Assembly: GCA_001795795.1 (NCBI GenBank)
Contig: MGKV01000007.1
Span: 14,553-76,806, forward strand
Length of the DNA: 62,254 nt
Source of the DNA: Candidatus Yanofskybacteria bacterium RIFCSPLOWO2_02_FULL_45_18
GTDB taxonomy: Bacteria; Patescibacteriota; Minisyncoccia; 2-02-FULL-40-12; GWA2-44-9
Direction of reading: 5' to 3'
Under the pieces are notes generated by a model that had not been told where the DNA came from, ran no database searches, and saw only the letters and a list, made by a program, of their open reading frames with translations. Made by a program: the position numbers and the translations under genes. Below, piece by piece: positions 3,011 through 62,254 of this stretch (the first letter of the stretch is position 1; the number at the start of each line of letters is the position of its first letter).

Positions 3011-3661
3011 ATGAGATTTCCCAACAAAACTTTAGAAAAGCAACTTTTCAAATCCGGCTATCAGCTGGTTGTTGGCGTGGATGAAGTGGGGACGGGTTCT
3101 CTGGCTGGGCCAGTGGTGGTTTGCGCCGTGGCGATGACCAACACTTTTTATAATAAACATCATAAAAAACTGCGTCGCCTTCGTGATTCCAAATTACTAC
3201 TCCCCCACCAGAGAGAAAAATTTTCAAAACAGCTAATTCGCGAATCAAATCTGGCTTACGCTATTGCCTCAGCCAGCCCAAAGGTTGTTGACAAGATTAA
3301 TGTTTATCAAGCGGCGCGGAGAGCGATGAAGAGAGCTATTGTGGCCCTTCGGCCGATTCAGGGCAATAAGTACTGTCGGACGATAGTACTTATTGATGGC
3401 AAAACAAAAATCAACGGGCTCGAATTAGAACAGATGCCTATCGTTAAGGGCGACTGCAAGGTGTTCGCAATCGCCTGCGCCTCGGTTATCGCCAAGGTCC
3501 ACCGCGACAAAATGATGGTTTGCTACGCTAAACGTTATCCGGGCTATGGCTTTGAAAGGCATAAAGGATATGGGACAAAGTACCATCAAGCACAGCTTCT
3601 AAAACAAGGCCCTTGCGCCATACACAGGGAATCCTTTGCACCAGTTGCAAAATTAATCTAG
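3011..3661 (+). CDS. rnhB: Ribonuclease HII
   Basis: VGVDEVGTGSLAGPVVVCAV active-site region and the C-terminal HR.SF motif. ATG at 3011 is preferred over the track TTG at 3005. Confidence 0.9.
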   Translation: MRFPNKTLEKQLFKSGYQLVVGVDEVGTGSLAGPVVVCAVAMTNTFYNKHHKKLRRLRDSKLLLPHQREKFSKQLIRESNLAYAIASASPKVVDKINVYQAARRAMKRAIVALRPIQGNKYCRTIVLIDGKTKINGLELEQMPIVKGDCKVFAIACASVIAKVHRDKMMVCYAKRYPGYGFERHKGYGTKYHQAQLLKQGPCAIHRESFAPVAKLI

Positions 3662-6798: not shown

Positions 6799-7143
6799 AT
6801 GGCTCGGATAATTCTTGAAAAAACAATATTAAAGAACGCCAGAGTGAGATTTATTCTTGAACTGTTGAGTGTTTTTATCGTGGGGCTGGTCGTTGGTATT
6901 GTCTTTCTCCGGCCGACCAAAACAACCAATGGTCCGCCGGGGTATACGCCAACACCGAGCGGGCAATATTGCATACAGGTCATTACCCAGGCCTTTAATC
7001 CCCAAACCGGAGATGTAGTTGATTTCCCCACGCCCTGCGACGTGCCAAAGGGATGGGAAGTCGCACCCGCGGGATGTCATTATGAAAAAGTCGTCTGCGT
7101 TATAGCTCCATGTAAACCTGTTTTGATTTGCCCGACGCCTTAA
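6799..7143 (+). CDS. Small secreted/anchored Cys-containing hypothetical protein
   Basis: 114-aa ORF with an N-terminal TM helix followed by a Pro/Cys-containing domain. Confidence 0.55.
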   Translation: MARIILEKTILKNARVRFILELLSVFIVGLVVGIVFLRPTKTTNGPPGYTPTPSGQYCIQVITQAFNPQTGDVVDFPTPCDVPKGWEVAPAGCHYEKVVCVIAPCKPVLICPTP

Positions 7144-7171
7144 AAATTTTCAATTTTTAATTTTAAATTTC

Positions 7172-7203
7172 CAATGAATTTTCAATGTCGCATTGATTCA
7201 TTG
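7172..7203 (+). repeat. CAATG-hairpin spacer element, copy 1
   Basis: CAATGAATTTTCAATGTCGCATTGATTCATTG. Near-identical copies lie at 24067 and 47734. Confidence 0.75.
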
Positions 7204-7211
7204 ATAATTTA

Positions 7212-23771: not shown

Positions 23772-24038
23772 ATGGTAGAAGTCCGTAGAAAACAAAATGA
23801 ATCCATCGGTGGCTTGATGCGCCGTTTCAACCGCTTGGTCCAATCAAGCGGAGTTTTGCTTAAGGCCAAAAAGTCGCGGTTTCATCAGAAAAAAAAGAAC
23901 GAGCGTAAAGAGAAAAATGCGGCCATTATGGGCATGCATTTGTCCGCCTTACGCAAACATCTTGAAAAGCTTGGCAAATACGACGACGAAACGTTTGAGG
24001 AAGAGAAGCGTAAAATGAAGCAGGAACTGGGGCTATAG
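23772..24038 (+). CDS. rpsU: 30S ribosomal protein S21
   Basis: MVEVRRKQNESIGGLMRRFNRLVQSSGVLLKAKKSRF matches the bS21 pattern. GGAGG sits 6 nt upstream. This is the internal start of track ORF 23622..24038. Confidence 0.85.
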   Translation: MVEVRRKQNESIGGLMRRFNRLVQSSGVLLKAKKSRFHQKKKNERKEKNAAIMGMHLSALRKHLEKLGKYDDETFEEEKRKMKQELGL

Positions 24039-24066
24039 AAATTTACATTTTCCATTTTCCAATTCC

Positions 24067-24098
24067 CAATGAATTCTCAATGTAACATTGGCTCATTG
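24067..24098 (+). repeat. CAATG-hairpin spacer element, copy 2
   Basis: CAATGAATTCTCAATGTAACATTGGCTCATTG. Confidence 0.75.
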
Positions 24099-24130
24099 TA
24101 AAATTGAATGGGAATTGATAATTGGTAATT

Positions 24131-24619
24131 ATGCTCAAAAACCAACTCAAGGAAGACGTGAAGATCGCCATGAAATCGGGCGATACGGTGATGCGAGGGA
24201 CGATTGCCATGTTAAACGCGGTGATTAAAAACCGCGAACTTGAAAAACGCGGTAAACTTATGAAAGCGGGCGGCGATGCCGCGACCGTTGAATCCGAGAG
24301 CCAGCTTAATGACGAGGAGGTCGTCGAAGTTATTTCTTCGGAAATTAAGAAAAGGAAGGAAGCGATGGAAACATTCAAAGTTGGAGGACGGCCCGAACTT
24401 GCCGAAAACGAGCAAAAAGAGCTTGCCGTTTTGATGCGTTATATGCCCGAACAGATGTCGGAAGACCAAATCCGCGAGGAAGTGAAGAAGGTTATCGTTG
24501 AGACAGGTGTGACTATCAAAGAAATGGGCAAGGCCATCGGCGCGGTAATGGCCAAATTAAAAGGTAAAGCCGACGGCACAGTCGTCTCGCGTATTGTCAA
24601 AGAAGAATTGTCAAAGTAG
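24131..24619 (+). CDS. yqeY: GatB/YqeY domain protein
   Basis: MLKNQLKEDVKIAMKSGD N-terminus and a C-terminal GKADG..VS..VKE pattern. Confidence 0.85.
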   Translation: MLKNQLKEDVKIAMKSGDTVMRGTIAMLNAVIKNRELEKRGKLMKAGGDAATVESESQLNDEEVVEVISSEIKKRKEAMETFKVGGRPELAENEQKELAVLMRYMPEQMSEDQIREEVKKVIVETGVTIKEMGKAIGAVMAKLKGKADGTVVSRIVKEELSK

Positions 24620-24630
24620 AACACTCCAGC

Positions 24631-24677
24631 AAAAAAGGCGGTGTCCTTGAAGAAATAAAGGACTAACCGCCTTTTTT
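24631..24677. terminator. Bidirectional terminator
   Basis: AAAAAAGGCGGT...ACCGCCTTTTTT with an inner GTCCTT..AAGGAC stem. Confidence 0.8.
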
Positions 24678-24687
24678 GTCTTTCAGA

Positions 24688-24796
24688 TTTGGCCGATTTC
24701 TTTGTCGCCAGCTCCAGGCCTCATTCACCGTACAGTCAGTACGGCTCATTTCGGGCTTCGCTTTCTCCTCGAACTCGGCCAACCTGGAGAGTTTTA
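24688..24796. repeat. ~110-nt cassette leader motif, copy A
   Basis: Shares ordered anchors and spacing with 57520..57627: TTTGG, TTCT, CCGTAC-N-AGTAC, TCGA, CTGG(A/G)GAGTTTTA. Confidence 0.55.
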
Positions 24797-24879
24797 TCTT
24801 ATAAATAATGACATCACAACTCTTATTTAGCGTTTAGCGAAAGGCGCTTTTTGTATGTATCTACAAATATGAATATATT

Positions 24880-24888
24880 TGGTATAAT
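24880..24888 (+). promoter_or_regulatory. Extended -10 promoter TGGTATAAT
   Basis: TGnTATAAT about 100 nt upstream of the SD-led ORF at 24992. Confidence 0.5.
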
Positions 24889-24991
24889 CATATATAGTTA
24901 GCATGGAGACTAACTTTAGTCTTCAGGCATTTTGAAAAAACATTGATTCGCTATCCCTTTTGGGGATAGCGCTCACTAAGGAGGTAAACTT

Positions 24992-25267
24992 ATGAGCAAA
25001 GATAGTGGTTCTTTTGGGCAAGCTGGCCACTTGTTGACATTGGTGGATCAGCCGCAACTTTCAACCGAGCAAATCCAGATCCTTGAAGGTAGCGGACATT
25101 TCACAGACCTGCTGCGAGCAATCAAGTTAGGAATCCTTTCAGAAAGGGAGACTGCTCAAAGAAGTCAACGAAATCGGTGTAGTTCTCGGATAGCAAATCG
25201 TGCTTCTGATATGTTTTCAGAACGAAATGACCGCGAAGCCCGTCAAAGGGAGGAAATATGTCTTTAG
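24992..25267 (+). CDS. Hypothetical small protein (cassette A, ORF1)
   Basis: 91-aa ORF with AAGGAGG 7 nt upstream and an Arg/Glu-rich tail. Could instead be the 5' part of a frameshifted gene. Confidence 0.45.
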   Translation: MSKDSGSFGQAGHLLTLVDQPQLSTEQIQILEGSGHFTDLLRAIKLGILSERETAQRSQRNRCSSRIANRASDMFSERNDREARQREEICL

Positions 25268-25485
25268 TGATGAGCACACCGCATGAGTCGGTCGGCTGGC
25301 TGGGGAGTTATGGAACACAGGTTGTGATATATGAGTGTGATGCTTCCAATCACACTTGCCATCGTCAGATCTCCGAATTCCTCAAATGTGAGTTTAAAGA
25401 AGGCCAGTCAGACGAAAAAAGCAGTATTATTAAATATAAGCGTCCGGTCAGAGGTTATCCGGAACGCCTCGCTGACAAGACTTGA
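25258..25485 (+). CDS. Hypothetical small Cys/His-containing protein (cassette A, ORF2)
   Basis: 75-aa ORF. Its ATG overlaps the ORF1 stop by 10 nt, with GGGAGGA upstream. Weak resemblance to the C-terminal module of the 57851 ORF. Confidence 0.45.
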   Translation: MSLVMSTPHESVGWLGSYGTQVVIYECDASNHTCHRQISEFLKCEFKEGQSDEKSSIIKYKRPVRGYPERLADKT

Positions 25486-25514
25486 GAAATCACGCGATTT
25501 TTCAAGTCTTTTTT
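25479..25514 (+). terminator. Rho-independent terminator
   Basis: GACTTGAGAAATC-ACGC-GATTTTTCAAGTC followed by T6. Confidence 0.8.
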
Positions 25515-25564
25515 ATTTTGATAAGATATCCGTAGTCAAATTAATTTCTAATTCTTAACTTCTA

Positions 25565-26056
25565 ATGGCTAACATTGATTTAGTTTTCCGCAACAAAATC
25601 GAAGATAAAAGGTGGGAGCAGGACTTTTTTGAGAAAATTATTAAGACCGCTCTAGCGGTTTTGAAGCGACCAGTGGCCAGCGACCAGCGACAAGTTTATT
25701 TGAGTATAAATTTAATAGATGAAGCCGAGATTCGGAAGCTCAATAAAAAATATCGTGGCAAAAACAAACCGACAGATGTGCTTTCCTTTGGGATGGAGGA
25801 TAATTTAAGGAAATCCCTCGACAAGCTCGGGATGAATAAATCCCCAATTGATCTTGGGGATTTATTCATATGCTTATCCATTGCCAAAAAGGAGGCAAAG
25901 GAGGAAAATATAAGCATGGAGCGTAAGCTCGCGTGGTTAACCGTCCACGGATTTTTGCATTTGGTTGGCTACGATCACGAGGGGTCTAAATGCGATGCCA
26001 CAAAGATGGTTACATTGGAAAAAAAGGTTTTGAAAGCACTTGAGGTTGAAATGTAA
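25565..26056 (+). CDS. ybeY: rRNA maturation endoribonuclease YbeY
   Basis: HGFLHLVGYDHE zinc-binding motif. Confidence 0.9.
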   Translation: MANIDLVFRNKIEDKRWEQDFFEKIIKTALAVLKRPVASDQRQVYLSINLIDEAEIRKLNKKYRGKNKPTDVLSFGMEDNLRKSLDKLGMNKSPIDLGDLFICLSIAKKEAKEENISMERKLAWLTVHGFLHLVGYDHEGSKCDATKMVTLEKKVLKALEVEM

Positions 26057-27391: not shown

Positions 27392-27648
27392 AAAGAGATC
27401 TCTTTATCCATTCCGCCCACACATCAATGTAGGGGCGGGATTCCGAAGTTGCAATGTGTAGCTTGATTTGCAACTTCTCCACAGATTTATCCACAGGAAT
27501 AAAGGGCGTGCTTGCGTGCCTTTTTCTTTTATGATAAACCGTCATATACGGAAATTTTCAATTATCAGTTACCAATTTCTATTCAATTATCAATTGGCCA
27601 ATGTAATATTGTAAATTCGTTGGAAATTGTAAATTGTAAATTTGCGCC

Positions 27649-39153: not shown

Positions 39154-39227
39154 CGGGCTATAGTGTAACGGTAGCACGAGTCCATGGGGTGGATTTAGTG
39201 GCAGTTCAAATCTGCCTAGCCCGACCA
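39154..39227 (+). tRNA. tRNA-Pro (anticodon GGG), CCA encoded
   Basis: Acceptor CGGGCTA/TAGCCCG with C1:G72. Anticodon stem AGTCC/GGATT with loop ATGGGGT. T arm GGCAG-TTCAAAT-CTGCC. Confidence 0.88.
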
Positions 39228-39230
39228 ATC

Positions 39231-39266
39231 AACCCTAAACCCCGCCAATTGGCGGGGTTTAGGGTT
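39231..39266. terminator. Bidirectional terminator palindrome
   Basis: AACCCTAAACCCCGCC-AATT-GGCGGGGTTTAGGGTT between tRNA-Pro and rpmB. Confidence 0.85.
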
Positions 39267-39450
39267 TGGCGACTTTGTGCAAAGTTTTGATGCAGTCGGT
39301 GCAGATCTTAACTCTCTTTCCGCCAATGCGGGCCCATTGCAAATTGGGATAACTTTTAGAACGATTGGTCGGATTATAATGTCCGCGAAGTAACTTTCGC
39401 GTTGTAACCATGATTGGTTTTTTACCGCATTGAGGGCATCGGGTAGCCAT
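39259..39450 (-). CDS. rpmB: 50S ribosomal protein L28
   Basis: MATRCPQCGKKP...PNLQ...V.C..C pattern of bL28 (zinc-ribbon type). Confidence 0.85.
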   Translation of the reverse strand: MATRCPQCGKKPIMVTTRKLLRGHYNPTNRSKSYPNLQWARIGGKRVKICTDCIKTLHKVAKP

Positions 39451-39630
39451 ATAGCGGAGTGGGCTCCCCGAAGTTGCCCGCGAGGGTTCCCGGTCCGCCC
39501 CTCATCTTGCTGGAAGCGAGATTGCTTCCGAAAGACGGCCGGAGGACTGGGATATGCGCAGGCGACGAAAAGGGAACTCTGTTGATTTACAGGGTAACAC
39601 GGAAATGATATATTTTCAATACCCCTATTT

Positions 39631-40227
39631 ATGGATACGCTTTTAGTAAAAGTCGCACAAATCATAATATTCTTATATTCGGTTGTTATCCATGAAGTAT
39701 CTCATGGTGTAATGGCAAACTCTTTAGGCGATACTACGGCCAAGAATATGGGGAGGATTACCCTAAACCCCCTCAAGCATTTAGATTTTTTTGGCTCTAT
39801 AGTTTTGCCGTTCTTAACTGGTTTTGGTTATGCGAAGCCGGTACCGTATAATCCTGCGAATCTTCCGAATCCACGGTCTGGCTCGGTGAAGATTGCATTG
39901 GCCGGTCCGCTGTCTAATGTTGCGTTGGCAATCCTTTTTGGATTGACATTGCGTTTTTTGGGAGGTTATATGGGCAGTCCGCTCCTTGTCGGATTATTTG
40001 AGTATATAGTTTTTGTTAATATCCTTCTCGCCGTTTTTAATATTTTCCCGATACCGCCTCTCGACGGGCACTGGTTGTTAATGGTATTTTTGCCCGACAG
40101 ATATTATAAGCTAAAGCAGCTTCTTTATAAATATAGTATCGTCTTCGTCATCTTTTTTGTGTTTGTTATTTTCCGCCTTATCAGCCCGGTAATTATACCG
40201 ATTTCGCGCTTTATAATCGGATACTAG
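39631..40227 (+). CDS. Site-2 protease family (M50) zinc metalloprotease
   Basis: HEVSHG HExxH motif in a TM helix, NIFPIPPLDG and a polytopic topology. Confidence 0.85.
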   Translation: MDTLLVKVAQIIIFLYSVVIHEVSHGVMANSLGDTTAKNMGRITLNPLKHLDFFGSIVLPFLTGFGYAKPVPYNPANLPNPRSGSVKIALAGPLSNVALAILFGLTLRFLGGYMGSPLLVGLFEYIVFVNILLAVFNIFPIPPLDGHWLLMVFLPDRYYKLKQLLYKYSIVFVIFFVFVIFRLISPVIIPISRFIIGY

Positions 40228-47296: not shown

Positions 47297-47704
47297 TTGA
47301 TGATTAAATTATTTGGCAAAAAAAGAAAAGAAGATAAAACGACAAAGGCGGACAAAGATTTAACTATGCCCGAAACAGTGGCAGAAAAGCGGCCGGTTTT
47401 GGTGATTGACAGCTCCAAGGGCTCTCGGGCTCTCGGGGTCATAAAAGGGATTTATCTTAGCGAAAAGGCCACATTGCTTTCCGGCTATAATCAATATATT
47501 TTCAAAACTTTTGCGAATACCAATAAAAGCGAAGCAGGCAAAATGATAGAAAAACTTTTTAATGTAAAGGTAAAAGCGGTTAAAATATTAAACATGCCGC
47601 AAAAAAGAAAAGATGTCGGAAAACACTCCGGCTTCCGTGCTGGTTTTAAAAAGGCCGTGGTTGTTCTTGAAAAGGGGTATACGATAGAACAAGCCAAACC
47701 GTAA
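47297..47704 (+). CDS. rplW: 50S ribosomal protein L23 (with Lys-rich N-terminal extension)
   Basis: Position. YIFKT....K.E....E.LF.VKV..V pattern in the C-terminal 90 aa. Confidence 0.9.
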   Translation: MMIKLFGKKRKEDKTTKADKDLTMPETVAEKRPVLVIDSSKGSRALGVIKGIYLSEKATLLSGYNQYIFKTFANTNKSEAGKMIEKLFNVKVKAVKILNMPQKRKDVGKHSGFRAGFKKAVVVLEKGYTIEQAKP

Positions 47705-47733
47705 ACAATTTTCAATTTCCATGTATCAATTTT

Positions 47734-47765
47734 CATTGAATTTTCAATGTTACATTGACTCATTG
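47734..47765 (+). repeat. CAATG-hairpin spacer element, copy 3
   Basis: CATTGAATTTTCAATGTTACATTGACTCATTG. Confidence 0.75.
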
Positions 47766-47858
47766 GAAATTGTCCCGGTATCTACTGGTTATAATCAGAA
47801 GAAATCGAGGACTCTCGATAACGAAGTTACCGGAGTAAATTGATAACTGGAAATTTGT

Positions 47859-48683
47859 ATGAAGCAATATAATCCCACAACTCCGTCCAGAAGGCATATG
47901 CAAGGATATGATTTTACCCAACTAAACAAAACGGGTGCTTTCAAGCCGCTTAAAAAGGGCTTCACCCGAGCCGTGGGCAGGAATAATACGGGCAGAATTA
48001 CCAGCTTTCACCGTGGCGGCGGAGTTAAACGCTTATATCGTGGAGTTGATTTTAAACAGGATAAGTTGAACATAGTGGGAAAGGTCATTTCTGTGGAGTA
48101 TGACCCTAACCGTACATCGCGCATTGCACTTTTGGTGTATGTTGACGGAGAAAAGCGTTATATATTGGCTCCGCAGGATCTTAAGGTTGGTGACAAAATA
48201 GTTACGGCAGAAAAAACTGAGATTAAACCGGGGAACCGTATGAAACTTAAGAACATACCCCAAGGAACTCAAGTACACAACGTTGAGTTGTTTCCTGACC
48301 AAGGCGGGAAAATAGTTCGGTCAGCCGGCAGTGCCGCATTAGTTCTTGCCAGCGAGGGGGGTTATGTGCAGTTGGTAATGCCGTCTTCTGAAGTCAGGGT
48401 TATTTCCGGAGAGAGCTTTGCTTCTATTGGCCAGCTTTCAAATGCCGAGCACAATCTTATAAATCTTGGTAAAGCCGGACGTTCAAGATGGCTTGGACGT
48501 CGTCCAAAGGTCAGAGGCACTGCCATGAATCCGGTTGATCATCCGTATGGCGGAGGCGAAGGCAGGCAGGGGCGGGGCACCAGAAGGCCAAAAACCAGAC
48601 ATGGAAAAATAACCGGCGGCAGGAAAACCAGAAATCCCAAAAAAAAATCGAATAAATTTGTTTTAAGGAGAAGGAATAGGTAA
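47859..48683 (+). CDS. rplB: 50S ribosomal protein L2
   Basis: GRNN.GRIT..HRGGG and RG.AMNPVDHP.GGGEG motifs. Confidence 0.98.
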   Translation: MKQYNPTTPSRRHMQGYDFTQLNKTGAFKPLKKGFTRAVGRNNTGRITSFHRGGGVKRLYRGVDFKQDKLNIVGKVISVEYDPNRTSRIALLVYVDGEKRYILAPQDLKVGDKIVTAEKTEIKPGNRMKLKNIPQGTQVHNVELFPDQGGKIVRSAGSAALVLASEGGYVQLVMPSSEVRVISGESFASIGQLSNAEHNLINLGKAGRSRWLGRRPKVRGTAMNPVDHPYGGGEGRQGRGTRRPKTRHGKITGGRKTRNPKKKSNKFVLRRRNR

Positions 48684-48684
48684 C

Positions 48685-48770
48685 AAGAATAATAAGAATA
48701 AGCAGAATTATTAGAATTATAAGGTGCGGCCTGATAATTCCAATAATTCTAAATTCTGATAATTCTAAGT
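48685..48770 (+). repeat. AGAATAATAAGAAT spacer element, copy a
   Basis: AAGAATAATAAGAATAAGCAGAATTATTAGAATTATAAGG... with an internal inverted repeat. Ends 1 nt before the rpsS ATG. Confidence 0.75.
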
Positions 48771-50481: not shown

Positions 50482-50520
50482 TCTTGCCGCATTTGACATG
50501 TGGCATTTGACCAAGTGTGT

Positions 50521-50548
50521 CAATTGTCAATTGTCAATTGTCAATTGT
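50521..50548 (+). repeat. (CAATTGT)x4 heptamer array, upstream of rplP
   Basis: Four exact tandem units, preceded by CATTTGACATGTGGCATTTGACC at 50490..50512. Confidence 0.95.
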
Positions 50549-50551
50549 TCT

Positions 50552-50959
50552 GTGTTGCAGCCATCGCGAGTAAAACATACTAAAGTTCACGGGGGTAGAT
50601 TGAAAGAAACCACATTGCGCGGGACGACTTTAAGTTTCGGAAGCTTCGGACTTAAAGCGCTGGAAGCTTCTTGGCTAAAAGCCAGTCAGTTGGAATCAGC
50701 TCGTCGAGCCATGACTCGTTTTGTGCAGCGAGGGGGGAAAATCTGGATTAGAGTATTTCCTGACAAGCCTAGAACCGCTAAAAGTTCGGAGGTGGGAATG
50801 GGCGGCGGCCGGGGGGCGCTGTCGCATTGGGTGGTGCCGGTTGAATCAGGTAGGATACTTTTTGAGATAGATGGGTTGCCGGAGGACCAAGCTCGCGAGG
50901 CGCTGCGTTTGGGTGCCCACAAACTGCCCATTAAATGCAGGATAATTAGCCGCAACTAA
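50552..50959 (+). CDS. rplP: 50S ribosomal protein L16
   Basis: A GTG start gives MLQPSRVKHTKVHGGR, matching the uL16 N-terminus. The track N-terminal extension merely reads through the repeat array. Confidence 0.93.
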   Translation: MLQPSRVKHTKVHGGRLKETTLRGTTLSFGSFGLKALEASWLKASQLESARRAMTRFVQRGGKIWIRVFPDKPRTAKSSEVGMGGGRGALSHWVVPVESGRILFEIDGLPEDQAREALRLGAHKLPIKCRIISRN

Positions 50960-51457: not shown

Positions 51458-51495
51458 TGTATAACATTTGACATGTGACATTTGACCGAATGAGT

Positions 51496-51529
51496 CAATT
51501 GTCAATTGTCAATTGTCAATTGTCAATTG
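51496..51529 (+). repeat. (CAATTGT)x4 plus CAATTG array, upstream of and into the rplN start
   Basis: Preceded by ACATTTGACATGTGACATTTGACC at 51464..51487. The final TTG (51527..51529) is the inferred start codon. Confidence 0.95.
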
Positions 51530-51892
51530 CTACAGCTTCGTTCCATAGTAAATGTTGCAGACAATAGCGGCGCCAAAAAAGTCGGTGTGTTTAAGGTGTT
51601 GGGCGGTTCAAGGAAAGATTTTGCCGAGATAGGCGACACCGTGGTGGTTTCGGTCAAAGTGGCTGAGCCCAGAAAGCTTGTAAAGAAAAAGGATGTCTTG
51701 CGCGCATTAGTGGTTCGTCAGCGGAAACCCTTCAGGCGCAAAGATGGAAGTTATGTCCGTTTTGACGACAATGCGGTTGTTATTCTTGATGGCGTTGAGC
51801 CAAAAGGCGGCAGGATTTTTGGTCCGATTCCGCGTGAGATAAAAGAAAAAGGGTTTAACACGATTGCATCACTGGCGGAGGAAGTGGTCTGA
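51527..51892 (+). CDS. rplN: 50S ribosomal protein L14
   Basis: A TTG start gives MLQLRSIVNVADNSGAKK, matching the uL14 N-terminus. Confidence 0.93.
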   Translation: MLQLRSIVNVADNSGAKKVGVFKVLGGSRKDFAEIGDTVVVSVKVAEPRKLVKKKDVLRALVVRQRKPFRRKDGSYVRFDDNAVVILDGVEPKGGRIFGPIPREIKEKGFNTIASLAEEVV

Positions 51893-51895
51893 TGA

Positions 51896-51980
51896 AAGAA
51901 TAATAAGAATTAACAGAATTATAAGAGTTAGCAGAAGTTGGCCAGATTACTCGCATTATTCTTATACTTCTGCTTATTCC
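51896..51980 (+). repeat. AGAATAATAAGAAT spacer element, copy b
   Basis: AAGAATAATAAGAATTAACAGAATTATAAGAGTTAGCAG... Ends at the rplX ATG. Confidence 0.75.
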
Positions 51981-53367: not shown

Positions 53368-53404
53368 CATACAACCTTTGACACGTGACCCTTGACAGCA
53401 ATGT

Positions 53405-53438
53405 CAAATGTCAATTGTCAATTGTCAATTGTCAATTG
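53405..53438 (+). repeat. CAAATGT plus (CAATTGT)x3 plus CAATTG array, upstream of and into the rpsH start
   Basis: Preceded by CCTTTGACACGTGACCCTTGACAGCAATGTCAA. The final TTG (53436..53438) is the inferred start codon. Confidence 0.95.
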
Positions 53439-53834
53439 GATCCAATCGCCGACATGTTAATAAGGATAAAAAACGCGCAACTGGTTGCGAAAGACCACGT
53501 CGTTTTTCCGTTTTCTAAAATTAAATTTACCATTGCCACGCTGCTTAAAAATAACGGATATGTTTCCGAAGTTAACAAAAGAAAAAGAAAAGCCAAAAAA
53601 ACAGAGCACGATTTTATTGAGATTGTTTTAAAATATTCAAATGGCTTGCCGAGGTTGCAGGGTTTTAAGTTGATAAGCAAACCCTCCCGCAGAATTTATA
53701 TAAAAGCATCTCGGATAAAACCGGTACGTTCGGGATTCGGTATGGCCATTATCTCAACTTCCAAAGGAATTATGTCGTCCAAGGAAGCATGGAAAGAAAA
53801 GTTGGGAGGAGAGCACATATGCGAGGTGTGGTAA
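53436..53834 (+). CDS. rpsH: 30S ribosomal protein S8
   Basis: A TTG start gives MDPIADMLIRIKNAQ, the canonical uS8 N-terminus. Confidence 0.94.
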   Translation: MDPIADMLIRIKNAQLVAKDHVVFPFSKIKFTIATLLKNNGYVSEVNKRKRKAKKTEHDFIEIVLKYSNGLPRLQGFKLISKPSRRIYIKASRIKPVRSGFGMAIISTSKGIMSSKEAWKEKLGGEHICEVW

Positions 53835-53842
53835 GCAAAGAT

Positions 53843-53914
53843 AGAATAATAAGAATTAGTAGAATTATAAGAATTATCGGGACTTTAATCTAATAATTCC
53901 AATAGTTCATAGTT
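53843..53914 (+). repeat. AGAATAATAAGAAT spacer element, copy c
   Basis: AGAATAATAAGAATTAGTAGAATTATAAGAATTATCGG...TAATTCCAATAGTTC. Ends at the rplF ATG. Confidence 0.75.
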
Positions 53915-56179: not shown

Positions 56180-57438
56180 TGTCCAAAATCCTACAAATAT
56201 TCCAGCGTCCTGACCTTCGCAAAAAGGTTCTTTATGTTCTGGCCATATTGGTGATTTTTCGTATTGTTGACAACATACCCATTCCTTCGGTAGATCCATT
56301 AAAGTTGAAGGAATTTTTTGCTCAAAATCAATTTTTCGGCTTAATCAGTGCTTTTACCGGCGGTTCCCTGTCAACTCTTTCTATCGGTATGCTTGGTTTG
56401 GGCCCATACATTACGGGTTCCATTATTATGCAGCTTTTGACGATGATTTTTCCTTCGCTGGAGCAGATGTATAAGTATGAGGGTGAAGCGGGGCGGGCAA
56501 AATTCAACCAATATTCCAGAGTACTGACCGTGCCGTTGGCGGCGCTTCAGGGTTATGGGTTTTTGACGCTGTTGGCCCGTCAAGGAATCATAGGTTCTCT
56601 TGGGACTCTTGAATGGGCGACTACAATTTTAGCGGTAATTGCGGGGAGTGTTTTCTTAATGTGGCTGGGGGAACTGATTACCGAGAAAAACGTCGGCAAC
56701 GGCGTTTCCATATTGATTTTGGCGGGTATTGTGGCGCGGTTTCCCACTGATATTAAACAAGCTCTATTTACCTACAGTTCCAGCCAATTATTTACCTATG
56801 TCGGTTTTGTGGCGATTGCCTTGGCGGTGATTGTCGGCGTTATTTATATTTCAGAAGCCCAAAGGAATATTCCGATTAACTATGCCAAGAGAATTAGAGG
56901 GAACAGAGTATTTGGCGGAGTTTCCACCTATCTTCCGATGCGCGTTAACAACGCGGGGGTTATACCCATTATTTTTGCGTTGTCTATTCTTCTTTTCCCG
57001 GGCATGATCGCCAACTTTCTTTCAGGGGCAAGTGTCCCCGTTGTTTCCCAAATTGCAACCTCGGTAGCGGCTTTTCTTCAATCCCAAGTTTGGTACTCCA
57101 TTTTTTACTTTATCTTGGTTTTTCTTTTCACCTACTTTTATACCGCTGTTACCTTTGACCCCAAATCAATATCTGAGAATATCCAAAAACAGGGTGGCTA
57201 TATTCCCGGTATCCGGCCTGGCCCGATGACAGCCCAATTTCTCAATCATTTGCTGAATCGTGTTACGCTGGTTGGCGCTTTGTTTTTGGGTCTGATCGCG
57301 GTTATGCCAAACATTGTCCGCGGCTTTACGGGCATCACATCCTTTACGGTTGGGGGCACCTCTATTTTAATCGTTGTTTCAGTGGCGTTGGAAATTATGA
57401 AACAATTGGACGCTCAGCTTAGTATGTATCAATACTAA
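56179..57438 (+). CDS. secY: Preprotein translocase subunit SecY
   Basis: 419 aa, 10 TM helices, LG..PYI..SII.QL and GGYIPGIRPG motifs. Confidence 0.97.
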   Translation: MSKILQIFQRPDLRKKVLYVLAILVIFRIVDNIPIPSVDPLKLKEFFAQNQFFGLISAFTGGSLSTLSIGMLGLGPYITGSIIMQLLTMIFPSLEQMYKYEGEAGRAKFNQYSRVLTVPLAALQGYGFLTLLARQGIIGSLGTLEWATTILAVIAGSVFLMWLGELITEKNVGNGVSILILAGIVARFPTDIKQALFTYSSSQLFTYVGFVAIALAVIVGVIYISEAQRNIPINYAKRIRGNRVFGGVSTYLPMRVNNAGVIPIIFALSILLFPGMIANFLSGASVPVVSQIATSVAAFLQSQVWYSIFYFILVFLFTYFYTAVTFDPKSISENIQKQGGYIPGIRPGPMTAQFLNHLLNRVTLVGALFLGLIAVMPNIVRGFTGITSFTVGGTSILIVVSVALEIMKQLDAQLSMYQY

Positions 57439-57474
57439 CGCATAATAAAACCGCCTAGCCCGAAGAAGATTAGG
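57382..57474 (+). repeat. 93-bp direct repeat, copy 1 (last 19 secY codons, stop, and 5' half of the terminator)
   Basis: Matches 58697..58789 at 92 of 93 positions (T at 57427 versus C at 58742). Confidence 0.97.
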
Positions 57475-57497
57475 GCTGTGGGCGGTTTTATTATGCG
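57439..57497. terminator. Long bidirectional terminator hairpin after secY
   Basis: CGCATAATAAAACCGCC...GGCGGTTTTATTATGCG with an inner TAGCCC..GGGCT stem. Confidence 0.85.
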
Positions 57498-57519
57498 CGC
57501 ATTCTTAGGGATTCTAAAT

Positions 57520-57627
57520 TTTGGATTGCTTCTGCGTTACCACTGCACTTCTCGCTCGCCGTACTTTTAGTACACCTCCTCACAATGCTCAATTACGTTT
57601 CGACCTTGGTGAAGCTGGGGAGTTTTA
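57520..57627. repeat. ~110-nt cassette leader motif, copy B
   Basis: Colinear anchors with 24688..24796. Followed by TATAAT at 57639..57644. Confidence 0.55.
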
Positions 57628-57850
57628 GCGTTCCGGTGTATAATAGATGCCCTAAAATCTCAGCCAATTATGGGGTTGCATATTGAGCTATTCTATGCTG
57701 TAATGATAGATATAGAGCCTTTAAAATGCTGTGGCAAAACCAATCTGGTGGAGCCTAAATTCCATAAGGAAGCAGCAAATGTTCCGTTCAAATCCTTCCT
57801 CGGATAAGAGGAAAATGAAAATGCGCAAGGAAGCGCAAGGAGATAAGGCC

Positions 57851-58546
57851 ATGAGTACTGAGTTTGCATCTGCCGGCTTCACTGCCGGTCAGCTCAACGC
57901 CATCGTTAAGAAGCTTGGTGGCGAAGAGAGCGGGAGACAGTTTCTCCGTGGTGGCCTGACGGTCAGTTACCAGAAGCTGGCGCAGTTTGTCGGCTTAGAC
58001 GGAAAGGTCACTTTGGAGAATTTCATGAAATGTGTGACCAGCTGGCGCGAGCAAGATGGCGTCATATGTTTCAGCGTCACTTCCGATGGGACGACTGGTC
58101 CCCAGTGGGTTGAGCGTCTCAAGAAGAAAGGTTTTCAGCTCTCGAAGTGGGCCAAGGACGTTTTAAACTCAAAAGATTTCCAGCCCACAAACGGAGTTAC
58201 GACCGAAATTGCGGTTCTGAAGGGGATGCTGTTTGAGGATGACGATCGTATCACCAAGAAAATCCGCGCTGAAGCCAACCGCCGCAAGTTTACCAAGCCT
58301 AATGCTGAAGTTGCTTGCCTGATACGCGAAATGTTCACGGATGAGGAGATTGAAGCCATGGGTTTGGTGTGGATTACTACCATGCACGAACCCATCAAGG
58401 ATTCTGATGACGATCCGCACCTCCTCATTGTGTACCGCGACGTCAGTGGTCGCTGGTTGTACGCGTATTACGACGAGCCTGACTACTTGTGGAATCGTGA
58501 CTTTGGGTTCGCATTCGTTGTCCCGCAAGTTAGTCCTCAAGACTAA
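57851..58546 (+). CDS. Hypothetical protein (231 aa) carried by the secY-adk insertion
   Basis: AAGGAG 7 nt upstream of the ATG at 57851 (inside track ORF 57731..58546). C/G-ending codon preference. Aromatic C-terminal module ...GRWLYAYYDEPDYLWNRDFGFAFV. Confidence 0.75.
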   Translation: MSTEFASAGFTAGQLNAIVKKLGGEESGRQFLRGGLTVSYQKLAQFVGLDGKVTLENFMKCVTSWREQDGVICFSVTSDGTTGPQWVERLKKKGFQLSKWAKDVLNSKDFQPTNGVTTEIAVLKGMLFEDDDRITKKIRAEANRRKFTKPNAEVACLIREMFTDEEIEAMGLVWITTMHEPIKDSDDDPHLLIVYRDVSGRWLYAYYDEPDYLWNRDFGFAFVVPQVSPQD

Positions 58547-58696: not shown

Positions 58697-58789
58697 GTGG
58701 CGTTGGAAATTATGAAACAATTGGACGCTCAGCTTAGTATGCATCAATACTAACGCATAATAAAACCGCCTAGCCCGAAGAAGATTAGG
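58697..58789 (+). repeat. 93-bp direct repeat, copy 2 (pseudo secY 3' end, lacks the 3' half of the terminator)
   Basis: See copy 1. Confidence 0.97.
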
Positions 58790-59017
58790 TTGGATGCCCT
58801 GCTGGAAAATCAGGAGCTCATCCCCGAGTCCTGGAAGAAAGATGAGCAAGGCAACACTCGCTATATATTTTTCTGGGGCACCATCTATCGCCGCGGCTCC
58901 GGTGGCCGCCTATATGTCCGCTCTCTGTGCTTCCACGATGGCGGGTGGTTCTGGTACTGCATCTGCCTTGACTACGACTTCTGTGGCCTCTACCCGGCAG
59001 CTGTCTCCGCAAGTTGA
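58790..59017 (+). pseudogene. 5'-truncated gene fragment abutting repeat copy 2
   Basis: The open frame begins exactly at the repeat boundary, with no SD or ATG. Encodes ...LIPESWKKDEQGNTRYIFFWGTIYRRGSGGRLYVRSLCFHDGGWFWYCICLDYDFCGLYPAAVSAS. Confidence 0.55.
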
Positions 59018-60775: not shown

Positions 60776-61644
60776 GCCACTGATAATGAATATCCTATAT
60801 AAAATTATTAATTTAAGTGGCTAATAAGCGTCTGGGGTTTCGCGCTCAAATCATGCCGCTTAAAGCGGCGTTTATATTTTATAAAGGAGTTTGCTGGGGC
60901 ATTTACAATCAATAATTGCAGCCGGTACCGGAAACAATTATTGGCGGTAAATGCAAGAATCTTGATAATTTAAGCCCGTGAGAAGTGTGGCACCGAAATG
61001 CCATCACAACCGTAGGGGTTACTTCTAAACGGGATAAAGTATGATAGCGGGTTAAGTTAATTTTAAATTTCCGTTGCGTAGCAACGGATGTGTTACTCAT
61101 TTGGAAGTCGTAACCAAGCTCTTTCGTAACGAAATTTCCAGATTTCGAGTGAAGCGAGGAAAAATTTTGATGTATACTGAACGTATATGGAAAAATTTTT
61201 CCGAAGCCATAGCCGAAATACGGGAATTGCAGTAGAAAAGGTTTGGTTACGACTTCCAACTAATAAGGGCGTATGGAGGATGCCTTGACACTAAAAGGCG
61301 ATGAAGGTCGTGGCGTGTCTGCGATAAGCTTCGGGGAGGCGACTAGCAGCCTTTGATCCGGAGATGACCGAATGGGAAAACCCCGCGCGGCAAACCCGCG
61401 CGAGCGCCGCTTTACAGCGAAGTTAAAAGTAAAAAATCAAAAGTCAAAATTTCAATTCAAAAGTTAAAAGTTTCAGACAATTTTTAATTTTAACTTGTAG
61501 TTTTGAATTTTGCATTTTGAATTTTGAATTCGCCGCAAAGCGGCGTGGCGTACCTGGCGAAGTGAAACATCTCAGTAGCCAGAGGAAAATAAATCAAAAA
61601 GATTTCCTTAATAGCGGCGAGCGAACGGGAAATAGCCTAAACCG

Positions 61645-61737
61645 TGTGGCTCACCTTTGTTGAGCCACCGCGGACTTTGCGGACTAAACGCGGAACTACG
61701 CGGACAAACTAAAAAATGTCTGCGTAAGTCGGCGTAA
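61645..61737 (+). repeat. rRNA insertion element, copy 1
   Basis: Identical over 93 nt to 62162..62254. Hairpin GTGGCTCA-N7-TGAGCCAC, then GCGGAC-type units. Confidence 0.97.
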
Positions 61738-62161: not shown

Positions 62162-62254
62162 TGTGGCTCACCTTTGTTGAGCCACCGCGGACTTTGCGGA
62201 CTAAACGCGGAACTACGCGGACAAACTAAAAAATGTCTGCGTAAGTCGGCGTAA
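62162..62254 (+). repeat. rRNA insertion element, copy 2 (truncated by the window end), in the helix 25 loop region
   Basis: Identical to 61645..61737. Follows ...CCTACAAAGAGCCGGAGC. Confidence 0.95.

Follow-up and report, generated by a model that had tools for sequence, protein, structure and literature searches.

Results

The Gap Between yqeY and ybeY

The DNA analysed here, referred to as the window, is a stretch of 62,254 nt from a Candidatus Yanofskybacteria genome in which the initial annotation had recognized two loci with one common layout, the first (locus A) in the spacer between yqeY and ybeY, and the second (locus B) downstream of secY. With the limits of the genes supported by Pfam, the gap at locus A measures 945 nt, as had been reported, and the hairpin, promoter-like site, ORFs, SDs and terminator described within it are all correct in position and nature (Table 1). 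Window 24614-25564 corresponds to ~39226-40176 of MGJL01000007.1. The inverted-repeat arms of the hairpin that follows yqeY (24630-24642 and 24666-24678, 13 nt each) are 100% complementary, and the putative 5′ UTR of the two small ORFs has a folding energy of -31.5 kcal/mol (z = -4.1). The short terminator-like hairpin that lies in front of the ORF1 promoter had been overlooked. No direct repeats were found flanking the locus, nor any compositional anomaly within it except for the plus-strand pyrimidine richness of the motif that it shares with locus B.

Table 1. Features of locus A, and the copy of the structured element at locus B, in window coordinates.
Feature	Position	Strand	Remarks
yqeY	24122-24619		Pfam YqeY, 2.6e-40
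P0 3′ strand, copy A	24614..24629	-	overlaps the yqeY stop codon (24617-24619)
Hairpin P2, copy A	24630..24678		A run, GC-rich stem, T run; "bidirectional terminator" of yqeY
Long hairpin P1, copy A	24689..24782	-	the former "leader motif" read on the opposite strand
P0 5′ strand, copy A	24784..24800	-	AAGAUAAAACUCUCCAG; TA at the outer edge
Short hairpin and T run	24829..24855	+	terminator-like, 7 pairs then TTTTTG; between element and ORF1 promoter
Promoter-like site of ORF1-ORF2	24860..24888	+	TCTACA, 17 nt, TG-n-TATAAT; 10/12 positions match, TG extension
Putative 5′ UTR	24889..24991	+	strong hairpins at 24901-24928 and 24949-24971, then AAGGAGG
ORF1	24992..25267	+	91 aa, strong SD, orphan
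ORF2	25258..25485	+	75 aa, SD, orphan; 10-nt overlap between its start and the end of ORF1
Terminator hairpin (25477-25510) and T run, then TG-n-TAAGAT (25519-25527)	25477..25527	+	probably ancestral yqeY terminator and ybeY promoter box
ybeY	25565-26056		Pfam YbeY, 2.3e-37
Copy B	57440..57648	-	degenerate; secY terminator = P2, motif 57520-57627 = P1

In the closest relatives yqeY and ybeY are separated by 61-80 nt, made up of the stop codon, a hairpin, a T run, GTGATAAAAT or GTGATAAGAT, and the ATG, with a TGATAAAAT box between the yqeY terminator and ybeY. The hairpin at the end of the insert, previously assigned to the cassette as its own terminator, does exist, but it occupies the position of this ancestral yqeY terminator and it probably represents that terminator, followed by the promoter box of ybeY. 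Among the relatives at large, the gap measures 9-96 nt in most and 190-2803 nt in others, where it contains unrelated cargo including diversity-generating retroelements (DGRs): those with adenine-specific mismatches between variable repeat (VR) and template repeat (TR) lie directly downstream of yqeY in the loci L155, L122, L154 and L170, there is also a DGR in L027, and L167 retains the remnant of a reverse transcriptase (RT). Since the gap is only 61-80 nt in the close relatives, and since DGRs have settled there in others, the stretch ~24620-25476 is to be regarded as an insertion in a hot spot. In locus A itself no RT, TR or VR was detected, while the controls in the relatives were positive, and the 62-kb window contains no RT, Avd or TR.

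Homology of the Motifs at Loci A and B

The proposal that the "leader motifs" of the two loci are homologous is borne out by their alignment. Positions 24698-24796 and 57530-57627 share 62 identities in 98 columns with one 1-nt gap, and in the whole window (~3,500 windows, both strands) they are reciprocal best matches, with a score of 23 as against 15 for the next-best and a background mean of 8.0 (sd 1.4). The observed score was attained by none of 1000 dinucleotide shuffles. Beyond the motif, loci A and B share nothing (best local scores 12-14, shuffle mean 12.6). Three possible origins of the resemblance were discarded: (i) a coding one, as the mismatches are distributed 12/11/9 by codon position and no frame is kept, and peptide tblastn gave no matches; (ii) a TR/VR-type relation, as there are mismatches of all base types; and (iii) a common plus-strand RNA fold, as copy B is unfolded (plus strand, z = -0.6; minus strand, z = +0.2).

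A Branched Structure on the Minus Strand

The motif is one arm-hairpin (P1) of a hairpin-forming element of ~185 bases on the minus strand, which includes the yqeY terminator. The architecture of this element, of ~160-220 nt in total, consists of a closing helix (P0) that encloses P1, a long bulged hairpin of ~90 nt, and P2, a short GC-rich hairpin. P0 is formed by terminal inverted repeats, for example UUAGAAC...GUUCUAA with TA outside, and the ends of the element read TA-GAACGCAGYTGRC...GYCARCAAGTTC-TA. The terminator is not a landmark behind which the element would insert, as had been suggested; it is P2 itself, inside the element and enclosed by P0.

In the minimum-free-energy fold of the minus strand (24612-24802; z = -6.2), positions 24614-24629 pair with 24784-24800, and the flank duplex so formed has -12.9 kcal/mol, compared with -5.7 +/- 2.3 in shuffles (p = 0.01). 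The pairing of the motif with sequence beyond the terminator had also been overlooked. This duplex is significant in 6 of the 8 copies known, with sequences that differ among them, and the same P0-P1-P2 shape emerges from separate folds of L171, L127 and copy A (z = -6.7, -6.4 and -6.2, respectively); a hairpin, of unrelated sequence in each case, stands at the P2 position in L171, L167, L127 and L149.

The covariance model R1 recognizes P1 of copy A with 114 bits (E = 6e-24), and 22 of the 26 consensus pairs are formed there. For the family, RNAalifold gives these 26 pairs, and compensatory changes are present at 17; 87% of the cells are paired as against 72% in shuffles and 33-50% with slid partners, the covariation score is 0.51 versus 0.25, and no shuffle in 500 reached the observed values. 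The family has 17 G-U pairs versus 4 A-C pairs, and in seven of the eight copies the sense strand exceeds the antisense strand in stability, the difference being 3.6-16.8 kcal/mol. The structure and the G-U pairs thus favor the minus strand at locus A, and not the plus-strand leader of the original description. The conservation of the element also exceeds that of synonymous sites: L171 and L167 are 92% identical in it versus 74% at third codon positions of S21, and L171 and L127 80% versus 61%, and the internal loops, UUCAAGGC and AACGAAGAAG, are conserved and purine-rich. The Rfam 15 covariance models, at gathering and E-value thresholds, gave no relevant match anywhere in the window, loci A and B included, nor in L127, L149, L167 and L171, and the minus strand of copy A has no convincing promoter.

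Copies of the Element and Empty Sites

A search with HMM and covariance models, covering 80 S21-anchored and 80 DGR variable-protein-anchored loci, a sample that is biased towards the yqeY hot spot, found further copies and brought the number to 8 in ~1 Mb of Parcubacteria DNA, at varied gene junctions and in both orientations. The view that a small element recurs directly past the ends of conserved genes is thereby upheld, as further copies lie between housekeeping genes of related Parcubacteria. The element is in the spacer between S21 and yqeY on the minus strand in L167 and L171, upstream of S21 on the plus strand in L127 and L149, in the spacer between S7 and fusA in L040, and between the VR (2689-2815) and the TR (3433-3559) of the DGR in L155. 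Other copies come without cargo. Marginal matches of the covariance models in L032, in L134 and at 61112-61229 of the window (rRNA processing stem) were treated as generic hairpins. An additional 17 kb of the same contig contained no more copies, and an exact-pattern scan of viral contigs with the core of the element gave 0 matches.

The junction between S21 and yqeY is empty in L158, L166, L170 and L140, and in the first three of these the stop codon of S21 lies 1 nt away from the ATG of yqeY. In L167 and L171, ~165 nt of the element are found exactly at this junction, with TA at both ends, and a comparison of the filled and the empty site leaves a few extra bases beyond the element. TA is likewise present outside both ends in L127 and copy A, but it extends the palindrome and the surroundings are AT-rich, so that it is no proof of a target-site duplication.

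Copy B is recognized by R1 with 91.7 bits. In its P1, 16 of 25 pairs form, and three mismatches are A-C; its fold has z ~0, its P0 is not significant (p = 0.29), and of its two strands the antisense one has the better fold.

The Two Small Genes of the Insert

The two overlapping SD-led ORFs and the promoter-like site in front of them are present as annotated. Among 5.8 billion proteins, ORF1 found only itself, and ORF2 did likewise, both there and when 1.84 billion representatives were searched exhaustively with phmmer; neither gave anything above threshold in Pfam, PHROG, NCBIfam, PADLOC or PDB, neither is similar to the ORFs of the gap inserts of relatives, and single-sequence nhmmer of locus A against the 80 + 80 loci left the cargo without matches. 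The coding score of ORF1 is -0.07 (0.10 in the N-terminal half, -0.27 in the C-terminal half), and that of ORF2 is 0.164, where real genes have 0.265 +/- 0.10 and the 95th percentile of spurious ORFs is 0.145. ORF1 is predicted by AlphaFold2 to be a single long helix, with which a fold search returned only meaningless helix matches, and the prediction for ORF2 has a pLDDT of 43. There are 40 SD+ATG sites on both strands of the window, 19 of which open ORFs of at least 60 aa, and two of these 19 stand in tandem at locus A, behind a promoter with 10/12 matches. Near-clonal assemblies, when compared, differ by one non-synonymous change in each of the two ORFs. ORF1 and ORF2 are likely to be real genes.

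The 231-aa ORF of locus B, of which both had been thought to be relatives, belongs to a DGR variable-protein family. When the HMM of this family (119 members) was run against 2749 six-frame fragments, the frames of ORF1 and ORF2 ranked 313th and 287th, with negative bits; hhalign of either ORF against the family gave probabilities of 0.2-0.3%, and tblastx returned nothing. The protein resemblances that had been noted consequently have no counterpart in profile or hhalign similarity, and the idea of a frameshift-decayed paralog is refuted at the profile level, the six-frame search included. On these comparisons, ORF1 and ORF2 are species-specific orphans unrelated to locus B.

Discussion

The explanation that we favor, and to which we give about an even chance of being right, is that locus A combines an ERIC-like mobile structured element with an unrelated orphan two-gene operon, in an insertion hot spot. 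The minus strand of ~24614-24800 is an intact copy of the conserved structured element, which most likely is of the ERIC/Correia kind: small, palindromic and mobile, but non-autonomous. Such an element would land at TA in or beside stop codons, in spacers that are very short in these compact genomes, and would be retained by selection for the fold of one of its strands. At locus A, P2 would have been co-opted as the intrinsic terminator of yqeY, while the copy after secY would be an old and decaying one, which would explain the 63% identity between the motifs. The rest (~24801-25476) would be a separate, species-specific insert with a promoter, a structured 5′ UTR and two overlapping SD-led orphan genes, which would end at the probable ancestral terminator of yqeY.

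ERIC has terminal inverted repeats and flanking TA, is found at the 3′ ends of genes and has an effect on the decay of mRNA, and SPRITE is a terminator-like repeat (PMC3184786). The likeness to ERIC/IRU (enterobacterial repetitive intergenic consensus, ~127 bp) comprises an imperfectly palindromic sequence of 100-200 bp, bounded by terminal inverted repeats that have TA at both termini, the location in either orientation in spacers at the 3′ ends of genes, the presence or absence at orthologous sites, the conservation of sequence across species and, presumably, hairpins that affect the fate of the mRNA at the RNA level (PMC3184786). Unlike the single hairpin of ERIC, the element described here is branched, with P0 enclosing P1 and P2; its copy number in the DNA examined is very low, and it belongs to a different phylum, with no sequence similarity to ERIC and no known trans-acting transposase. 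Small mobile repeats are also able to bring terminator-like hairpins or promoter boxes to their neighbors (PMC3184786), and P2 of copies A and B would likewise be the terminator of yqeY and of secY. The -10-like boxes that arise from the AT-rich ends of the element are the TATAA(A)TA of the initial annotation. In those families a single genome contains tens to hundreds of near-identical copies, whereas here only the 8 mentioned were found in ~1 Mb.

Several observations count against a mobile element. Typical miniature inverted-repeat elements (MITEs) have numerous, similar copies, and in this genome there are two in the ~80 kb examined, with only 63% identity; the loci examined contained neither a transposase nor an autonomous parent with matching ends; and the conserved purine-rich loops, together with the above-synonymous conservation, fit a functional RNA gene equally well or better. 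Against the explanation as a whole there are also the lack of a convincing minus-strand promoter in copy A, the fact that a minus-strand transcript terminated at P2 would leave the 3′ strand of P0 untranscribed, and, regarding the putative expression of the ORFs, the poor coding score of ORF1 and the conservation of neither ORF anywhere.

The genomes of the Candidate Phyla Radiation are tiny and tightly packed, little is known of their non-coding elements or of how accessory genes enter them, and we know of no genetics in the group. In this context, locus A offers a conserved, covarying element of ~185 nt, outside Rfam, that would supply a housekeeping gene with its terminator and that appears and disappears at exact stop–start junctions, in a place, the yqeY–ybeY junction, which is a recurrent landing site for DGRs and orphan genes. 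Its covariance model could improve annotation, for example through fewer spurious calls of small ORFs over the element, and would provide a handle on the mobile DNA of these bacteria.

Among the alternatives, the most probable one, although we hold it to be unlikely, is that the element is an ordinary, non-mobile sRNA gene of a new class of structured ncRNA in Parcubacteria, which would have its own minus-strand promoter, would run towards yqeY or secY in convergent orientation and would stop at the bidirectional terminator shared with them, and whose varied positions would derive from genome rearrangement and duplication. The covariation, the G-U asymmetry, the strand-specific stability, the loops UUCAAGGC and AACGAAGAAG and the above-synonymous conservation all fit such a gene, strong terminators end copies A and B, and good sigma-70-like promoters can be read from the sequence on the sense strand of L127 (TTGAAA-16-TGgTATACT), of copy B (TTGGCT-16-TATTAT) and of L149. 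However, the -35 spacing is wrong (12 nt) in L167 and L171, copy A has no convincing promoter, and no U run follows P2 or P0 in L127, L167 or L171. The element is, moreover, missing in most of the 80 relatives anchored on S21, only one of the 80 DGR-anchored loci contains it, it occurs in both orientations, the exact stop–start junctions that it occupies are empty in sister genomes, and one genome contains an intact and a decayed copy. With structured bacterial sRNAs whose bidirectional terminator also serves a convergent gene it has in common the size of 160-220 nt, the covariation, the strand bias and some promoter-like boxes, but it differs from them in its sporadic presence among close relatives, its variable position and the lack of an Rfam match. 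The 6S, SRP, retron and attC readings were rejected on structure, end motifs and lack of Rfam matches. There is no single-stranded central bubble as in 6S RNA, the 5′ junction being of only 0-3 nt in the folds of L171 and L127. The attC sites of integrons have R''/R' cores (RYYYAAC...GTTRRRY) and form arrays beside the integron integrase, whereas the ends found here, TTAGAAC...GTTCTAA, fit only AAC and GTT, and the copies are single and 33 kb apart.

Distinctly less probable than the sRNA gene is a new, Parcubacteria-specific structured RNA or single-stranded DNA that would be functionally coupled to the turnover of accessory genes and would mark or create the integration hot spots, past housekeeping genes, at which DGR cassettes and orphan genes are swapped. 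The copy of L155 is situated between the VR and the TR of an apparently active DGR, and in the window the element adjoins the DGR variable-protein gene of locus B, at whose flanks there is a 93-nt duplication with one end within hairpin P2 of the element.

A functional tie of the element to DGRs themselves, which it would serve as an accessory structure, of RNA or DNA, or as a mark of integration, locus A then being the relic of a DGR cassette formerly present at the yqeY–ybeY site, seems quite improbable. The DGR cassettes of Patescibacteria use the same hot spot downstream of yqeY, adjoining it in the five loci named above, to which the RT remnant of L167 is added, the locus B ORF belongs to their variable-protein family with copy B just upstream of its gene, the L155 copy lies inside a DGR, and three of the five S21-anchored copies are within ~1.2 kb of DGR parts. 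But the sampling is biased towards the hot spot; the element was found in only one of the 80 variable-protein-anchored loci, 1.2 kb off and past two ribosomal protein genes; L171 has the element and no DGR in its locus, while L122, L170 and L154 have DGRs and no element; and locus A, unlike such cassettes, lacks VR, TR, Avd and RT and resembles none of the DGR cassettes of the hot spot in tblastx or blastn, the window as a whole being devoid of RT, Avd and TR.

We attach equally little probability to the proposal that ORF1 and ORF2 form a toxin-antitoxin pair or a similar two-gene module, for addiction or defence, which arrived in the hot spot, a reading which concerns only the cargo and is compatible with the explanation preferred here. 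What stands of the toxin-antitoxin-like geometry is the arrangement of small, adjacent, co-directional genes that overlap by 10 nt, with strong SDs and one strong promoter and terminator, in a variable locus that adjoins mobile DNA; what does not is any match to a toxin or antitoxin family, in Pfam, NCBIfam, PHROGs, PADLOC or PDB, or any recurrence of the pair, as neither gene has homologues in protein searches, the first is predicted as a single long helix and the model of the second is of low confidence.

Finally, the original reading, in which both loci belong to one cassette family with a common leader, promoter, ORFs and terminator, and ORF1-ORF2 are a frameshift-decayed paralog of the 231-aa gene, is already contradicted and retains hardly any credit: the motif is common to both loci, the accessory genes lie on the same side of it, and the SD/start region of ORF1 matches the start of the variable-protein gene of L027 in 21 of 25 nt (E = 0.06, in a tiny database), but beyond the motif neither profiles nor hhalign, tblastx or DNA comparisons show any similarity, the cargoes are unrelated and absent from the other copies, the motif is missing upstream of 79 of 80 members of the variable-protein family, and that family has different conserved flanking sequences.

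A Structured Element Common to Two Spacers

The initial annotation had proposed that the 945-nt yqeY-ybeY spacer (locus A) and the secY-adk insert (locus B) share a leader motif, and the homology of the two motifs (24688-24796 and 57520-57627) is real: in a pairwise alignment of 24698-24796 with 57530-57627, 62 of 98 columns are identical with one 1-nt gap, the two are reciprocal best matches under mild scoring among ~3,500 windows from both strands of the 62-kb stretch, and their score of 23 (next best 15; background 8.0 ± 1.4) was reached by none of the dinucleotide shuffles. Beyond the motif, the DNA of the two loci is similar at chance level only. The mismatches are without codon periodicity and no reading frame is kept, so the motif is non-coding.

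A metagenome scan anchored on the neighbouring S21 protein gave 80 relatives' loci (S21 identity 74-85%), and a profile built from the two motifs was used to find more copies, there and in 80 loci anchored on a variable protein of diversity-generating retroelements (DGRs). Read on the minus strand of the window, seven copies have in common a long bulged hairpin (P1), 17 of whose 26 pairs show compensatory changes; 87% of its cells are paired, as against 72% in shuffles and 33-50% with slid partners, its covariation score is 0.51 vs 0.25 (0/500 shuffles as high), and it holds 17 G-U pairs vs 4 A-C pairs. The sense strand folds better than its complement, by 3.6-16.8 kcal/mol, in 7 of 8 copies.

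Folded independently at full length, L171, L127 and copy A (z = -6.7, -6.4 and -6.2) are all predicted to adopt the same architecture, in which P1 and another hairpin (P2) lie within a closing helix (P0). The sequence of P0 varies by copy (GCUGG/CCAGC, GUUGAC/GUCAAC and, in copy A, CUCCAG/CUGGAG), and it is better than shuffles in 6 of 8 copies (copy A, p = 0.01). In copy A, P2 is the hairpin previously described as the bidirectional terminator of yqeY, and P0 overlaps the stop codon of yqeY with its 3′ strand, so that the element takes in both the terminator and the supposed leader. Copy A is intact, whereas copy B is degenerate, with 16 of 25 P1 pairs formed, a P0 that is not significant and a fold z of ~0. 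No Rfam family matches any copy of the element; the copies make up a new family of structured palindromes located in spacers. The initial observation is largely right, and the other signals that had been named for locus A are likewise present in the sequence (Table).

Table. Features of the window and copies of the element in relatives' loci
Feature	Position	Remark
Element copy A	~24614-24800
Hairpin with A and T runs	24630-24678
Additional hairpin and T run	24829-24855	unmentioned in the initial annotation
Promoter-like site	24860-24888	TCTACA-17-TGgTATAAT
ORF1	24992-25267
ORF2	25258-25485	10-nt overlap with ORF1
Terminator	25477-25510
231-aa ORF	57851-58546	has a 20-aa insertion; its Patescibacteria family is very large
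93-nt direct repeat	57382-57474, 58697-58789	1 mismatch
~68-nt AT-rich repeats	7142-7209, 24037-24104, 27550-27617, 47704-47771, 61444-61511
Heptamer and 9-nt arrays	50505-50554, 51480-51543, 53389-53452; also 48674-48737, 51894-51939, 53822-53885
Element, L167 and L171	S21/yqeY spacer	found with profile of two motifs
Element, L127 and L149	between preceding gene and S21	inverted; same profile
Element, L040 (DGR-anchored set)	S7/fusA spacer	same profile
Element, L155		weaker copy; same profile

Nature of the Element

Between L171 and L167 the element is 92% identical and S21 third codon positions 74%, and between L171 and L127 the values are 80% and 61%; some constraint thus acts on it. The element is also sporadic, being absent from most relatives: the ~165 nt that it occupies in L167 and L171 lie exactly at an S21/yqeY junction that is empty in L158, L166 and L170, where the yqeY ATG stands one base from the S21 stop codon. 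Five different junctions carry copies, which occur in either orientation, and the element ends in inverted repeats flanked by TA. ERIC-type and related MITE-like bacterial repeats have terminal inverted repeats, flanking TA, positions at gene 3′ ends, and effects at the RNA level, and the mobile repeat SPRITE resembles a terminator (PMC3184786). As the element's combination of traits is that described for these repeats, we favour a small mobile structured element, here co-opted as a terminator; the main rival reading is a new sRNA gene that is not mobile.

The Two Small ORFs

Locus A had also been read as a decayed paralog of the 231-aa ORF of locus B, and this is refuted: a 119-member profile of that family matches no frame of locus A, placing those of ORF1 and ORF2 313th and 287th among 2749 fragments, hhalign gives a probability of 0.2-0.3%, neither ORF has a match other than itself among 5.8 billion proteins, nor does ORF2 have one when 1.84 billion representatives are searched exhaustively, and nothing lies above threshold in Pfam, PHROGs, NCBIfam, PADLOC or PDB. 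The idea of one same cassette at both loci therefore shrinks to the motif, the remainder finding no counterpart above chance; the motif is absent upstream of other members of the 231-aa family, and the cassette-family and leader interpretations are unsupported.

ORF1 and ORF2 are probably genuine genes, given that the whole window contains only 40 sites with a Shine-Dalgarno sequence and ATG, that 19 of these begin ORFs of 60 aa or more, and that two of the 19 are this tandem, downstream of a strong promoter; the codon score is gene-like for ORF2, but not for the C-terminal half of ORF1. They form a species-specific orphan two-gene operon adjoining copy A, the toxin-antitoxin-like geometry being the sole hint at function.

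The yqeY-ybeY Junction

Locus A lies in the order hisS-HIT-rpsU (S21)-yqeY-(945 nt)-ybeY-ftsA-ftsZ. In relatives the yqeY-ybeY gap usually measures 9-96 nt, and in the closest ones consists of stop codon, terminator hairpin, T run, GTGATAAAAT box and ATG. The same layout is found at 25477-25527, which probably represents the ancestral terminator together with the ybeY promoter; ~24620-25476 is therefore inserted DNA. In other relatives the junction holds 190-2803 nt with unrelated cargo, including DGRs with adenine-specific pairs of variable and template repeats (VR/TR; L122, L154, L155, L170) and a fragmentary reverse transcriptase (RT) remnant (L167), and in a Uhrbacteria genome (L027) a DGR directly follows yqeY. 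The junction is thus a hot spot for the insertion of accessory DNA, and the site after yqeY is a recurrent DGR home in Yanofskybacteria-like genomes and one Uhrbacteria genome. Locus A has no similarity to the hot-spot DGR cassettes. Some of the post-yqeY cassettes are decaying (L154, in which the RT is frameshifted, and L167). At the S21/yqeY junction, L153 (1240-1363) and L160 (3765-3930) have in common a different spacer element, ACACAACCTCTATGC..., whose hairpin is GC-rich and whose tail is AT-rich.

The 231-aa ORF and a Possible DGR Association

The 231-aa ORF has at least 1,937 relatives of ~211 aa across Patescibacteria. In nine loci examined, the 3′ end of the family gene is repeated downstream, 153 of 173 mismatches falling at adenines of the downstream copy (TR), and within 3 kb of the gene there is an RT in 33/80 loci and an Avd-like gene in 41/80; the family is therefore a DGR variable protein. 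The window's own copy lacks a TR, RT or Avd anywhere in the 62 kb, and its VR does not differ between the assemblies seen.

Copy B is located immediately upstream of this gene, three of the five element copies of the S21-anchored set are within ~1.2 kb of DGR parts, and in L155 the element stands between VR and TR. However, the element is missing from 79/80 DGR-anchored loci and the sampling is biased towards the hot spot, so the association is a lead, not a finding. Copy B and the variable-protein gene are flanked by a direct repeat of 93 nt that combines the 3′-terminal part of secY with the first half of the secY terminator and stops within P2; this repeat resembles the footprint left by Campbell-type or site-specific integration. 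Directly 3′ of the second secY-end copy is a 75-aa ORF (58790-59017) rich in Trp, Cys and Gly, whose first 38 residues have a weak tblastn match in L077.

Other Repeats in the Window

An AT-rich repeat family of ~68 nt (AAATTTTCAATTT...CAATG...CATTG), which may be a promoter or UP-like module, occupies spacers, that of S21/yqeY among them. Two kinds of array, one of the heptamer GTCAATT and one with a 9-nt period of AGAATTATA type, each occur at three places within ~5 kb. The 5′ portion of the 23S rRNA gene contains two identical stretches of 93 nt or more (61645-61737 and 62162-62254, the second cut off by the window end). The 23S match needs 1002 nt to cover 636 model positions, which means that an insertion is present in the gene.
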